DNA of 64,000 nt from Naegleria gruberi (Eukaryota): NCBI GenBank assembly GCA_000004985.1, contig GG738852.1. One strand, given 5' to 3'. The notes beneath the pieces are model-generated. The model did not search any database and had not been told where the DNA came from. It saw only the letters and a list, made by a program, of their open reading frames with translations. Positions within the stretch are counted from its first letter, which is position 1. Every line of letters starts with the position of its first letter. Below are positions 22,079 through 52,119 of the stretch, one piece after another. Position numbers and translations under genes: made by a program.

Positions 22079-24448
22079 ATGCCTCCAGCAACAGCTGTTT
22101 CAGCAAAAACAGAATCTGTGAGGGTCTGTGTCAGATGTAGGCCATTCAACACAAGAGAAACGGAAAGGAAATCCAAAAAATGTGTGGAAATAGATAAAAA
22201 CGCAAACCAGGTTATTTTAACAAAGAATGAAAATGAACCTCCAAAACCTCCATTCACCTTTGATGCTGTTTTTGACATGGAGTAAGTAGTAATTGAAATT
22301 GGCAGAATACTTAATTAAAATAGTGCAACACAGGGTGAAGTCTTTCAAGCAACTGCAAAACCGATCGTTGAGAGCGTCATGGATGGTTATAATGGAACAG
22401 TATTTTGTTATGGTCAAACAGGAAGTGGTACGTACTATTTAATTTAATACACTAATTTACTAATTTAATATTACAGGTAAGACACACACGTAAGTTTCTA
22501 ATAGTGAATTGAGGATTTAAATGAAAACAATAGTATGGAAGGTAAACCTGAACCATTGGAATTGAGAGGTCTTATTTTTAACTCAGTTTGTAGAGTATTT
22601 GAACTTATTGATGATGCACCAAAGAATATCACATACCTTGTAAATATATCAATGATCGAAATTTACAATGAAGAAATCAGAGATTTGCTAGTTCCTAAAT
22701 CTGAAGTTGGAAAAAAGCTCGATTTGAAAGAAACAAAGGACGGTATTACACTCAATGCCTCCTCAGTGTTGGTAAAAGAATTAAAGGAGGTCAATAAGAT
22801 TTTAGCTATCGGTTCTAAAAATAGAGTTAAGGGAGAAACTAATATGAATAAGGACTCAAGTAGATCTCACTCTATTTTCATGATCACAATTGATATGTTG
22901 GACGACACCAAACAAGAGAAGAAAGGTAAATTGAAACAAGGTAAATTGAACTTGGTAGATCTTGCTGGTTCTGAAAGAGCTGAAAAAACAGGTGCCACTG
23001 GTGACAGATTGAAGGAAGGTTGTAAAATTAACTTGTCTCTCAGTGCTCTTGGTAACGTTATTTCAGCTCTCGTTGAAGGTAAAGGAAAACACGTTCCATA
23101 CAGAGATTCCAAACTTACAAGACTTTTACAAGATTCACTTGGTGGTAATACAAAAACTGTAATGGTTGCAAACTTTTCACCAGCAGATTTCAACTATGAA
23201 GAAACTTTGTCCACATTGAGATATGCTGACAGAGCCAAACATATCCAAAACAAACCAAGAATCAATGAAGATCCAAAGGATGCTCTTCTTAGACAATTAC
23301 AAGAACAAATTGAGGCTTTGAGAGCTCAATTAACACAATCACAAGCTGTCTCTGCATCTTCAATGGTGGTGGGAAGCTCAACTACCACTGTTATTGTTAA
23401 CGATGCAAATGACAAACAAATCAACTTATCTTCGGCAGCTGTTAACGAAGAGCAATTACACAAACTCAAAGAAGAAAAGGAAAAGGAGAAACAACAAATT
23501 ATCGAGGCTATGAAGCAAAAATCAGACGAAGAAAAGAAGGGTTTGGTTGAGCAACAAAAGAGAATTGAAGAAGAAAAAGCTAAAATCGAACATGAACTTA
23601 AAATTCGTCATGATGCTCTTGAGCAAGAACGAAAGAATAAGGAAAAGATTCAAAACAAGCTTATGGAGCTCCAATCCAAATTGGTGCATGGTGGTCAGCT
23701 AGAACAAGTCAATGCTGAACAAAGAGAACAAATTTTAAAGCAAAAACAAGAAATTGAAGATAAGGAACGTGTAGCTATGCAATTAAAGAGAGAAATGGAA
23801 GAACAACAAGAAAAGAATATCATGATGGAAGAAAGATACAGCAGTATTCAAGAAGAAGTTCAGGTTAAGACTAAAAAGCTCAAAAAATTGTGGTCCAAGT
23901 TTGAAGCAGCAAAAGCTGAAATTTCGGATCTCCAAAAAGAATTCCAACAAGAAAGAGAAGATTACCTGTATACTATCAGACAACTTGAAAGAGATCTAAA
24001 GTTGAGAATGAAGATTATGGAACATTTCATTCCTCCTGAAGAGGTCAAGAAGATTGAGGAGAGGGCTGTCTGGGTTGATGAAGAAGATGAATGGAAGATT
24101 CAATCAGTTTTTTTGGCTGGTAATCATCAACGAAAAGGAAGACCTATTTCAGCTTCAGGACTAAAGAGAGCTGTAGCTTACTCTGTTATTGGAAACTCTA
24201 ATCCAAGATATAAGAGTGAAAATGTTATAGACCTCTCAATGGAAATGCCAGAAAGAACAACAGAAGACTACCGTTTCGCAAACGAACAACCACAAGTCCA
24301 CACAAGCTATGAATCCCAAGACTCTAACGCATCAATGAGAAAATCGAGACCTTCTTCATCTAATCCAGCTAAAACAAGCAGGCCAAAAACAGATAAATCA
24401 GATTCTGGTCAACCTTTCCCTGCCTCCAGAGGGTTAGTGAGGAAATAA
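22079..24448 (+). CDS. Kinesin-2 family motor subunit (KIF3/KRP85-like); 4 exons 22079..22281, 22324..22427, 22477..22489, 22534..24448
   Basis: The motor domain carries the P-loop [28 protein letters not shown] and [19 protein letters not shown]. The neck [29 protein letters not shown] is the kinesin-2 signature, and a coiled-coil stalk follows. Introns are GTAAGT…ATAG (42 nt), GTACGT…ACAG (49 nt) and GTAAGT…ATAG (44 nt), and the phases close exactly. Confidence 0.85.
22477..22489 (+). other. 13-nt microexon (GTAAGACACACAC) of the kinesin-2 gene encoding part of the P-loop (G-K-T-H-T)
   Basis: This exon is required to obtain the invariant GSGKTHTMEG Walker-A sequence. It is flanked by an AG acceptor (22475-76) and a GTAAGT donor (22490). 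Confidence 0.75.
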
Positions 24449-24490
24449 AGATTTTGTAAATACCTAATAAAATTATAATTAGATTAAAAA

Positions 24491-49764: not shown

Positions 49765-52119
49765 AATCATTTAGACAAAAACTGGGGCATGGTAATTAAG
49801 AATATTTCTGATGAGGAAGATGAATTACCTCTCGAAGTGGAAATGCCAATGCAAATTAGACCTAATACACATTCTGCAAACTATGGCGACCGAGAGATTA
49901 ACGCCTCTAATGTGAACATCGAAATTGCTCGCTCTCCTTACCACTCACGAAGTGTTTCAAGAGCTTCATCAAAGACAGAAATGTATTTTAATGCTAAAAT
50001 GCAAAAGACACCCCGAGAACCTCAACAGGTTACCCCAAGAGAAGTACTTCCACCTCAAATGACCCCTAAAGCATCCAATCATTCATCCCCAAGAGCCATT
50101 AATATATTCCCAACTGATACAAATCAAACAGATCAAACGGATGTAACCGATATACCAACATTGGGTCACCATGATTCCAATGTTAAATTCAGTAATAGTT
50201 TTCAATACGACCACCATCCTAGTCAATTGAAGAAAATCATGACCAAAACAAATAAGGAATGGATAGAACAACAACGTCCTGAAATTCTTTCCCTTGTAAA
50301 AGAAGAGTTGGAACATGACGATCTTACGAACATGAGAGAAAGATTGAGACAAATGGCAAAAGCCTTCAAAGAGGAAGAAAGGAATAGAAACAAATTTTCC
50401 AGAGCTTTTAGAAGATTAAAATTGTGGTGGGGAAGCCACAGAGCAACAAGAATCATTTCCCATTTAAACCCTTTTGTAAATTCATTGCAAGTCATTGAGA
50501 AGAGATTTGGTAGTGGTGTTGCTACGTATTATGACTTTTTCTATTCGGTAATCAAGATGAATTTCTTTGTTGCTGTTTCTTCATTCCTATTATTAATTCT
50601 ACCATGGTTATTGAGACCACTTGATAATTGGCCAGATGTTTGGAAGTTGGATTTCCTCATGGGTCTATTTGGTGTCAAGTCAAACATAATTGGACTGACA
50701 TGGTTCTTCTTTGGTGGTTATGAGGATAGACTTGTATTGTTTTCAACAGTTATTTGGCCATTCGCTTTTGTTTATGTGTTTGTGGTGATTTTGAACTTTT
50801 CGATTTGTATAGTTTCTATTTGTATGAGTATAGGTGCTAAGGTTACAAGTGTGTCACATATTGACGAAAAAAACACTAGATACCTTGAGGCAGTCTTTAA
50901 CAGTTATAGTTTTGGTGTACAATCCAAGGAAGGTGTCCAAGATCTTCAAAGATATTTGGCCACCAAATTGGCAGAGTACAGAAATGCAGACTTTGCTAAA
51001 GAAAAGTCAGCTGCTCAAAAATCTCCAAAAGAACTTGTATTCTTGGTTTTTAAAAGAGCCATTGGTATTGCAGTGAGCGGCTTCTTTTTAGTAGGTACAC
51101 CAGTGGCTGTCTACTTTATTGTCCAATATTATGAAATTATTAATTCTGCTTTCCCTTTTACAACTTCAGTGCTGTCATCAACAATTTCCTTGCTCTTCCC
51201 AATTATTATTTCATACATGGTCCACTTAGAAGGTTATGCTGAAAGAGCTACAACAGAATGGAATATTATCATTAGAACATATGTTATCAAAATGTCAACC
51301 ACCGTTGCTTTGATGGTGAGAGTCTTGTTCTTGGACGAAAGTGATGGTAAATGCAGACAAACTGAGGCAGGTTTAGTCTTTTGGCAAATGATTTGGATCG
51401 AATTTGCTGTGAGCATTTTCAAAACATTAATTTTCCTTCCTGTTAGGTACAATTTAATGAGATGCATAACAAAAAAGAAAACTGATGACGACTGGGAATC
51501 AAAAAGAAGAGGAAAAGTTGAGTTTGATGTTCCTGAAAACGTTATCGAATTGCTTTACAGACAGTCCTTAATATTCGTCGGTATGATTATGTCTCCAATG
51601 ATTCCAATTGCTGGTTTGTTTTCAAACCTTGTTTTATACTTTTGTAAATATTTGATAATGAGAGTTACTGCCAAATTCCCAGACAATCCATATGAAAGAG
51701 GTAAGAGCAGTCCTTTCAATTTGAACATGTTGCTCCTCACTTTTGTCTTTTGTCTGGTTCCACTTGGTTTCTTCTTGTTCCAAGCCTCAGGAAGTAACTG
51801 TGGTCCATTCAGAGCTTCTGCTTTAGCATCTCAACAAATGCCAATTGAAGCTGCCCTTACTGCCTTAAGTCTTGCATTCACATTTTATCAAGATGAGAAT
51901 GCAGCCTTAAATTGGGAAAATATCTTATTCTATGCTGGTCACAAGATAACTTTGGGTTCTTTGGTAGTCTTCTTTGTTATTGTTTCCTATTTCCTTTTAA
52001 AGTATCTTAACATGTTTAGAATGAAGTACACTGCTGCCGAATTGAGGGCCAATTCTGAAAGAAAGGAAAAATCTCAAATCCTCAGAGAGTACGTGCAGAG
52101 GACAAATCTTAAATATTAA
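49765..52119 (+). CDS. Transmembrane channel-like (TMC) family protein
   Basis: …IEKRFGSGVATYYDFFYSVIKMNFFVAVSSFLLLILP… corresponds to the TMC hallmark FGTGVASYFIFLRWLF. The downstream …FDVPENVIELLYRQSLIFVGMIMSPMIPIAGLF…SNCGPFRA aligns with the TMC domain (…CGPF…). About 8 TM helices. Confidence 0.75.
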   Translation, partial: NHLDKNWGMVIKNISDEEDELPLEVEMPMQIRPNTHSANYGDREINASNVNIEIARSPYHSRSVSRASSKTEMYFNAKMQKTPREPQQVTPREVLPPQMTPKASNHSSPRAINIFPTDTNQTDQTDVTDIPTLGHHDSNVKFSNSFQYDHHPSQLKKIMTKTNKEWIEQQRPEILSLVKEELEHDDLTNMRERLRQMAKAFKEEERNRNKFSRAFRRLKLWWGSHRATRIISHLNPFVNSLQVIEKRFGSGVATYYDFFYSVIKMNFFVAVSSFLLLILPWLLRPLDNWPDVWKLDFLMGLFGVKSNIIGLTWFFFGGYEDRLVLFSTVIWPFAFVYVFVVILNFSICIVSICMSIGAKVTSVSHIDEKNTRYLEAVFNSYSFGVQSKEGVQDLQRYLATKLAEYRNADFAKEKSAAQKSPKELVFLVFKRAIGIAVSGFFLVGTPVAVYFIVQYYEIINSAFPFTTSVLSSTISLLFPIIISYMVHLEGYAERATTEWNIIIRTYVIKMSTTVALMVRVLFLDESDGKCRQTEAGLVFWQMIWIEFAVSIFKTLIFLPVRYNLMRCITKKKTDDDWESKRRGKVEFDVPENVIELLYRQSLIFVGMIMSPMIPIAGLFSNLVLYFCKYLIMRVTAKFPDNPYERGKSSPFNLNMLLLTFVFCLVPLGFFLFQASGSNCGPFRASALASQQMPIEAALTALSLAFTFYQDENAALNWENILFYAGHKITLGSLVVFFVIVSYFLLKYLNMFRMKYTAAELRANSERKEKSQILREYVQRTNLKY

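Follow-up and report, generated by a model that had tools for sequence, protein, structure and literature searches.

The four flagellar genes and the gene for tubulin-folding cofactor C (TBCC) that lie within 20 kb on one chromosome of Naegleria gruberi are probably neighbours by accident. We analysed a 64-kb stretch of contig GG738852.1 (hereafter the window), in which a preliminary description had noted a concentration of cilium-related genes, and we favour the explanation that this neighbourhood is a fortuitous, lineage-specific juxtaposition whose members are co-regulated gene by gene through promoter elements. According to this explanation, genome rearrangement would have brought kinesin-2, CLAMP, DNAAF11, CFAP43 and TBCC together amid unrelated housekeeping genes, and the neighbourhood would constitute no operon-like or chromatin-domain regulatory unit. 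Co-regulation during the change from amoeba to flagellate would instead be exerted in trans at each promoter through short proximal elements, and the candidate for such a shared promoter element is an E2F-type site lying 16-143 bp upstream of the ATG in four of the five genes. We infer two further steps, namely that an E2F/DP-type factor binds this motif and that the motif drives induction during differentiation.

The window has a G+C content of about 34%, with long open reading frames (ORFs) tightly packed on both strands and few, very short introns; its genic share is about 84%, corresponding to approximately 37-38 genes. Genes were called by a Pfam scan of every long ORF and by comparison with solved structures (phmmer against the PDB). 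Between 22 and 52 kb, four cilium-specific genes (kinesin-2, CLAMP, DNAAF11 and CFAP43), plus TBCC, were counted among approximately 17 genes, and the Pfam scans and structure searches gave no ciliary gene among the remaining 20 or so genes of the window. Unrelated genes, including PB1, CDC50, OGG1, DUF3228 and an FNR-like oxidoreductase, lie between the ciliary ones on both strands. The density was compared with chance by simulating a genome of 16,000 genes (16,620 are predicted in N. gruberi), 200-800 of them labelled as ciliary, and by scoring random 37-gene windows for at least four ciliary genes within 17 consecutive genes. As to the scale of ciliary gene sets, the human gold standard holds 687-688 genes and CiliaCarta 956. 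Such a group occurred with P = 0.0005-0.04, and 0.2-23 groups are expected per genome; when TBCC was included as a fifth gene, the values were P = 0.00001-0.006 and 0.01-4 groups. For a single window this density, which is real, is nominally unusual, but it probably does not exceed what chance yields somewhere in a genome.

To assess whether the linkage is conserved, orthologues of three anchor genes (DNAAF11, CFAP43 and CLAMP) were examined with 10 kb of flanking DNA to either side, which gave eight neighbourhoods in four species (Table 1). No recognisable ciliary family was found among the neighbours in any of the eight. In N. fowleri the three orthologues lie on three separate contigs, and those from N. 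lovaniensis, Willaertia magna and Acrasis kona are likewise unlinked. A tblastn comparison of all window ORFs with the fetched loci L001-L007 placed neither kinesin-2, TBCC, DUF3228 nor TMC near any anchor. Other adjacencies have persisted: that of DNAAF11 and OGG1 is kept in N. gruberi, N. fowleri, N. lovaniensis and Willaertia magna (with OGG1 inverted in Willaertia), and CLAMP and a homologue of the 375-aa membrane protein encoded beside it (TM375-like) are still within about 8 kb of each other in N. fowleri and N. lovaniensis. Because this microsynteny survives, the missing adjacency of ciliary genes to one another is informative. In Willaertia, TGT stands head-to-head with DNAAF11 at a distance of 53 bp, and in N. 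gruberi it lies at the window start, 32 kb from DNAAF11, which suggests that the segment between the two was inserted or rearranged. On this small scale, the eight neighbourhoods hint that clustering of ciliary genes is not the rule in Heterolobosea. The preliminary description had allowed that the density might be chance, and both the number of groups expected per genome and the absence of the linkage in relatives agree with this.

The same evidence bears on the alternative that the genes form a co-expression cluster which selection favoured in N. gruberi alone, and in which one chromatin domain would speed or synchronise induction during the transformation of about 1 hour. The nominally low probabilities given above would fit such a cluster, as would the six or seven promoters that share the E2F-type element in 36 kb, at about one per 10 kb versus about one per 35 kb in the loci from other species, and the tight tandem arrangement of TBCC, DUF3228 and CFAP43, with intergenic gaps of only 66-135 bp. 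However, the linkage is missing in every relative examined though other microsynteny persists, and housekeeping genes on both strands (OGG1, CDC50, PB1 and the oxidoreductase) separate the ciliary ones. Moreover, the sole divergent promoter shared by a ciliary gene pairs CLAMP with a membrane-protein gene, and the category and the sub-window to which the probabilities refer were chosen after looking at the sequence. We consider a selected cluster unlikely.

The promoter element was seen in printouts of the 200 bp upstream of the ciliary genes and their orthologues, as a GC-rich palindrome in AT-rich DNA. Its full palindromic form is TTTGGCGCCAAA, the form TTTCCCGCC also occurs, and the site is often the palindrome TTTGGCGCCAA. 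It contains TTTSSCGC, the classical E2F consensus. When TTTSSCGC was counted in the window, seven matches, forming six sites, were found against 1.2 expected, and none of 100 dinucleotide-preserving shuffles reached seven. All seven matches were in intergenic DNA, which accounts for 10,076 bp (15.7% of the window), and none was found in 54 kb of genic DNA; the intergenic expectation under a first-order Markov model was 0.24, and seven was not reached in any of 2000 simulations. Every site lies 16-234 bp upstream of a start codon. A site within 200 bp upstream was present in four of the five ciliary or TBCC genes versus one of 20 others (P = 0.002 by Fisher's test, post hoc). The CLAMP site sits in a divergent promoter of 145 bp (27018-27162) that is common to CLAMP and the gene for a 375-aa multi-pass membrane protein.

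A second promoter element, (A/T)ACTACAAAAAA(A), which can also be written (A/T)ACAAAAAA, was found in CLAMP, TBCC and CFAP43 downstream of the E2F-type site and next to the ATG. It reads ATACAAAAAAC at TBCC and is also present at the 792-aa orphan described below, and the CFAP43 copy is identical in N. fowleri. The core TACAAAA occurs in four of the five ciliary promoters versus three of 20 others, and A-rich leaders are general in the window; the second element may be an initiator or leader element.

Comparison with N. fowleri indicated that the element persists where the genes are dispersed. In the CFAP43 promoter of this species, TTTTGGCGCCAAAAT and AAACTACAAAAAAAA are retained without any difference as 15-nt islands, surrounded by sequence that cannot be aligned, and its CLAMP promoter keeps TTTTTGGCGCCAAG. 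TTTSSCGC occurred only six times in the 174.5 kb of loci from other species, and simple arithmetic from these counts gives approximately 5e-5 for accidental presence at both N. fowleri promoters. An element that works promoter by promoter and is kept also when the genes lie apart would therefore point to a trans-acting regulon and not to a positional one. From the sequence, shared regulation of these genes is plausible, and the co-regulated flagellar regulon raised in the preliminary description is retained as a dispersed, promoter-encoded set and abandoned as a positional cluster. Only tentatively do we go on to propose that the palindromic element, often followed by ACTACAAAAAA, is a cis element of the Naegleria flagellar and basal-body programme, through which an E2F/DP-type factor might switch on axonemal, intraflagellar transport (IFT) and tubulin-folding genes.

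Two further observations on the element were made outside N. gruberi. An E2F-type site, TTGGCGCCAAA, was noted in N. fowleri at L004 18670-18681, 35 bp upstream of an 858-aa gene with a double Kelch propeller that lies 5 kb downstream of CFAP43. A metagenome scan for TTTGGCGCCAA-N(3-25)-ACTACAAAAA returned 12 matches, all of them chance-like and none in a Naegleria-like promoter context; most were in GC-rich (0.42-0.63), bacterial-looking contigs.

Several points weigh against the explanation that we favour. As to the element, the motif was first noticed by eye in the same promoters that were later used for the enrichment test, and an unbiased comparison of exact k-mers between the five and the 20 promoters, in which CGCCAA(A) and TACAAAA ranked high, lacked power and left none that survived correction for multiple testing. 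DNAAF11 carries only a degenerate site, TTTCCCTCC, in N. gruberi, and among the loci of other species none that was fetched showed TTTSSCGC for this gene; the N. lovaniensis version of the CLAMP site is also degenerate, and two or three of the motif-bearing genes in the window are orphans. As to the position, a single random window reaches P of approximately 0.001-0.01 at mid-range assumptions, which is nominally unlikely, and the distance between N. gruberi and the species compared makes absent synteny only moderate evidence. A weak selective advantage of proximity, specific to N. gruberi, is conceivable.

The lack of a good site at DNAAF11, a purely axonemal-dynein factor, would also fit the alternative that the E2F-type sites reflect control by the cell cycle or by microtubule biogenesis, in which case the ciliary theme would be wholly coincidental and the genes would share no control in differentiation. 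Classically, E2F sites act at G1/S. In N. gruberi, tubulin cofactors are induced in mitosis and in differentiation alike, as are several central-pair components, and the motif-bearing TBCC and C1a-type genes belong to exactly those classes. However, no role in mitosis is known for kinesin-2 or CFAP43, and it is CFAP43 that has the best site, which is kept in N. fowleri. We prefer differentiation control at individual promoters and regard cell-cycle control without it as quite doubtful.

Table 1. Positions of genes, promoter elements and orthologous neighbourhoods. Positions refer to the window unless a fetched locus (L) or a contig accession is given.
Feature	Position	Strand	Remarks
LRR gene with SDS22-type repeats	5689-8122	-	Pfam LRR_4/LRR_8/LRR_9 only; protein >600 aa
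E2F-type site TTTCCCGC	8791-8798	+	intergenic; 227-234 bp upstream of orphan gene (ATG 9025, runs to 10900)
792-aa orphan ORF	14843-17221	-	no Pfam or PDB match
One-mismatch E2F-type site of 792-aa orphan, with following sequence	17316-17345		about 100 bp upstream of annotated ATG
E2F-type site TTTCCCGC	21936-21943	+	136-143 bp upstream of kinesin-2 ATG
Kinesin-2	22079-24448	+	exons 22079-22281, 22324-22427, 22477-22489, 22534-24448; 744 aa
CLAMP-domain gene	25752-27017	-	421 aa; C1a-32/34 homologue (FAP114, FAP119, CFAP119)
Second element region, CLAMP	27018-27032		
E2F-type site TTTGGCGCCAAG	27033-27044		16-27 bp upstream of CLAMP ATG
375-aa multi-pass membrane-protein gene	27163-28290		shares divergent promoter with CLAMP
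DNAAF11/LRRC6/tilB	32542-33525	+	327 aa; axonemal dynein pre-assembly factor
DNAAF11-OGG1 block	32542-34951		
TBCC	34954-35880	-	canonical; TBCC 107.7 bits, TBCC_N 28.8 bits (cut-off 27)
Second element region, TBCC	35881-35916		
E2F-type site TTTCCCGCCAAA	35917-35928		37-48 bp upstream of TBCC ATG
DUF3228 gene	36049-36732		between TBCC and CFAP43; 66 bp to CFAP43 stop codon
CFAP43	36733-42073	-	several exons; N-terminal WD40 propellers, C-terminal coiled coil; axonemal tether complex protein
Second element region, CFAP43	42074-42096		
E2F-type site TTTGGCGCCAAA	42097-42108		perfect palindrome; 24-35 bp upstream of CFAP43 ATG; followed by AAACTACAAAAAAAA
835-aa Q/N/P-rich orphan ORF	42136-44643	-	directly upstream of CFAP43
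E2F-type site TTTGGCGCCAAT	44714-44725		71-82 bp upstream of 835-aa orphan ORF
TMC-family membrane protein	49756-52119	+	PF07810 44.5 bits (cut-off 25)
901-aa WD40 gene	56739-59444	+	
N. fowleri E2F-type site, CFAP43	L004 9932-9943		
N. fowleri second element region, CFAP43	L004 ~9945-9960		
N. fowleri E2F-type site, CLAMP	L006 9955-9962		
DNAAF11-OGG1 blocks, other species	L001 10001-12948; L003 8645-12225; L008 10001-12667		
N. fowleri DNAAF11 neighbourhood	VFQX01000002.1		G6PD, 6PGD, two RCC1 genes, OGG1, CID protein, prefoldin, Arf, Tweety
N. fowleri CFAP43 neighbourhood	VFQX01000068.1		G-alpha, aminotransferase, GDI, fatty-acid hydroxylase, Oxa1, Kelch protein
N. fowleri CLAMP neighbourhood	VFQX01000001.1		catalase, PNP_UDP, RGS, G-alpha
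N. lovaniensis DNAAF11 and CLAMP neighbourhoods			resemble those of N. fowleri
Willaertia magna DNAAF11 neighbourhood			TGT on one side, OGG1 on the other
Willaertia magna CFAP43 neighbourhood			rhomboid, trypsin, mitochondrial carrier, PPR
Acrasis kona DNAAF11 neighbourhood			no ciliary neighbour

The identities on which the ciliary theme depends were determined gene by gene. The 5′ end of the kinesin-2 gene was rebuilt from the sequence as a four-exon model, in which a micro-exon of 13 nt on the plus strand completes the P-loop GQTGSGKTHTMEG, so that splicing restores the full motor including GQTGSGKT. This micro-exon encodes part of GSGKTHT and lies between introns of 49 and 44 nt; the first intron of the gene is 42 nt long. 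The main exon scored 274.8 bits with Pfam Kinesin, and among solved structures the product matched KIF3B (397 bits), OSM-3 (383), Giardia kinesin-2 (339) and KIF3C (339) best, while other kinesin families scored lower (KIF13B 294, KHC 288 and KIF11 272 bits), the top score being about 100 bits above them. By this comparison of scores, the gene is a kinesin-2 family member, as had been called in the preliminary description, and from family membership its product would be predicted to act as the anterograde IFT motor.

The CLAMP gene, which the preliminary description had missed, matched PF14769 ("flagellar C1a complex subunit C1a-32") with 46.4 bits against a cut-off of 22.7, and its best solved relatives are proteins of the central apparatus, namely CFAP119 (7e-5) and the Chlamydomonas proteins FAP114 (1e-7) and FAP119 (1e-3). 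By sequence similarity, we assign it as a homologue of the C1a-32/34-type subunits of the C1a projection of the central apparatus, at a level above that of individual paralogues. With its N. fowleri and N. lovaniensis orthologues it shares about 60% identity. No identical product of the CLAMP ORF is on record, and the homology search gave proteins of N. fowleri and N. lovaniensis only and none of N. gruberi; the gene may be absent from the public N. gruberi annotation or differently modelled there. DNAAF11 is 100% identical to NAEGRDRAFT_31069, encoded on a scaffold of 938,756 bp, which shows the window to be nuclear DNA of N. gruberi. Pfam CS_DNAAF11_C (103 bits), LRR_9 (52 bits) and LRR_4 were matched, giving the family architecture of N-terminal SDS22-like repeats with an LRR cap and a CS domain of DNAAF11 type at the C-terminus. 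Hundreds of named homologues across eukaryotes, with 37-59% identity, are tilB/DNAAF11, in agreement with the earlier tilB/LRRC6 call.

The exon layout of CFAP43 was obtained by tblastn with the N. fowleri protein, and its first exon and ATG were read from the sequence. CC_Cfap43 scored 314 bits, WD40_CFAP43 remained below threshold (25.9 bits, cut-off 26.9), and generic WD40 and beta-propeller families were also matched. The gene had been described as CFAP43/44-like; as all named homologues are CFAP43, CFAP44 was rejected, and the call is sharpened and stays ciliary. Because TBCC and TBCC_N domains are both present, TBCC is the canonical cofactor and not RP2 or TBCCD1. The earlier tubulin-folding identity is thus upheld, but the product is a general tubulin chaperone and not cilium-specific.

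Two other genes had been counted towards the theme with less reason. The gene called a TMC channel homologue does belong to the TMC family, and its translation has hydrophobic stretches, but no E2F-type site was found upstream and nothing was found that supports a ciliary or axonemal role. Vertebrate TMC1/2 act in actin-based stereocilia. The best PDB matches of the leucine-rich repeat (LRR) gene with SDS22-type repeats were bacterial Roco and then PPP1R7, across only about 125 residues, and the ciliary LRR proteins DRC3 and LRRC23 scored about half as well. Full-length orthology to SDS22/PPP1R7, a protein of about 360 aa with LRRs throughout, was rejected: the Naegleria protein exceeds 600 aa, the LRR match covers about 125 residues and Roco scores higher. 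Its repeats are generic, and a ciliary role is without support. Both genes were dropped from the ciliary list, on which four genuine genes, with CLAMP added, remain. That the whole theme is an annotation artefact, with the genes belonging to non-ciliary families, is true of the TMC and LRR items and in part of TBCC as a general chaperone, but it is refuted for kinesin-2, DNAAF11, CFAP43 and CLAMP, which pass the family thresholds widely and match named ciliary proteins, and as an account of the neighbourhood it is highly improbable.

Some of the genes that carry the element are orphans. The 835-aa ORF gave no credible Pfam family (DpnI was below threshold, with E 0.006 and 16.6 bits where the cut-off is 26.7) and matched nothing in the PDB, and it is a candidate for a Naegleria-specific member of the same regulon. 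The orphan with its ATG at 9025 likewise had no Pfam or PDB match. At the 792-aa orphan, a one-mismatch E2F-type site, CTTCCCGCC, is followed by GTACAAAAAAAAA, and the upstream region also gives the block GTACAAAAAAAAATTAATG after CTTCCCGCC; the gene may thus have a first exon further upstream and possibly belongs to the same promoter class. The 792-, 835- and 543-aa ORFs gave no credible Pfam family and had no match to solved structures, entries for the axoneme from cryo-electron microscopy included.

Among the remaining genes of the window are TGT, ELP1, ThrE, CDC50, OGG1, DUF3228, the oxidoreductase, an RF-1-like gene, Brix, cystatin, a generic WD40 gene, sybindin, an F-box LRR gene and several orphans. 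Scans with Rfam and for tRNA gave no family and no tRNA in the window. DUF3228 was considered as a ciliary gene and rejected because its solved relatives, hypothetical proteins of Cryptosporidium and Toxoplasma, include a protein of Cryptosporidium, which has no flagella. The 901-aa WD40 gene was also rejected as ciliary, its best match being a generic "WD-40 repeat protein" (2ymu, 239 bits). The repeats of this protein are very regular, designed repeat proteins are its next-best solved matches, and no link to cilia was seen. The 1.8 kb at 29571-31397 holds no ORF of at least 90 aa and seven of at least 45 aa, all on the plus strand, and the long ORF of CDC50 begins without an ATG at 31398; this segment could be a multi-intron gene, a degenerate gene or the 5′ exons of CDC50.

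As a gene cluster, the neighbourhood is ordinary: it illustrates how a few related genes can come to lie side by side fortuitously when a genome is compact, and it is no argument that Naegleria arranges flagellar genes by position. Its main value is the lead on an E2F-type promoter element, though this rests on few promoters. Shared by kinesin-2, CFAP43, TBCC and a gene of the central apparatus, this short, conserved site, which is confined to promoters, offers a concrete hypothesis for the control of cilia genes in Naegleria.

Known eukaryotic clusters include co-expressed neighbouring genes in yeast, testis-specific clusters in the fly, and metabolic clusters in fungi and plants. The present group resembles them in that several related, non-homologous genes lie within tens of kilobases. 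The known clusters, as generally understood, are supported genome-wide, often conserved or contiguous, and co-expressed over a domain, whereas the N. gruberi genes are interspersed, their linkage is not conserved, and their density appears to be within the genome-wide chance expectation. The RFX/X-box regulon of animals, with its element GTNRCC-N-RGYAAC, is a further system for comparison. Dispersed ciliary genes are co-regulated there in trans through a short palindromic element near the start codon; however, its motif differs from TTTGGCGCCAAA, and RFX is absent from Naegleria.

The Naegleria differentiation regulon (Fritz-Laylin & Cande 2010, by microarray; Kennard et al. 2024/2025, by RNA-seq) concerns the same organism and the same gene classes, namely the IFT motor, a dynein assembly factor, axonemal and central-apparatus proteins and tubulin cofactors, induced de novo. 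It differs in comprising hundreds to thousands of genes, and we did not find positional clustering, a transcription factor or a cis element reported for it. In differentiation, 6,389 genes from across the genome change in expression, and according to a 2025 review the factors controlling Naegleria cilia genes are not known, with RFX, FOXJ1 and XAP5 absent; E2F/DP/pRb have been reported in Excavata.

A parallel to the putative sites is the vertebrate programme in which E2F4/5-DP1 with Multicilin (MCIDAS/GEMC1) drives centriole amplification and ciliogenesis genes. In it, an E2F-type factor drives genes for ciliogenesis and for de novo or amplified formation of basal bodies outside S phase; in Naegleria, which also builds basal bodies de novo, E2F-consensus sites are on the promoters of flagellar genes. 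The direct targets in vertebrates are mainly centriole-biogenesis genes together with FOXJ1 and RFX, whereas Naegleria lacks FOXJ1 and RFX, and its putative sites are on structural, IFT and chaperone genes themselves. If the hypothesis is true, the de novo basal-body programme of Naegleria would connect with the E2F4/5-Multicilin programme of animals, and the involvement of E2F in de novo ciliogenesis, known so far from vertebrate multiciliated cells, would be either ancient or convergent in a discoban protist.

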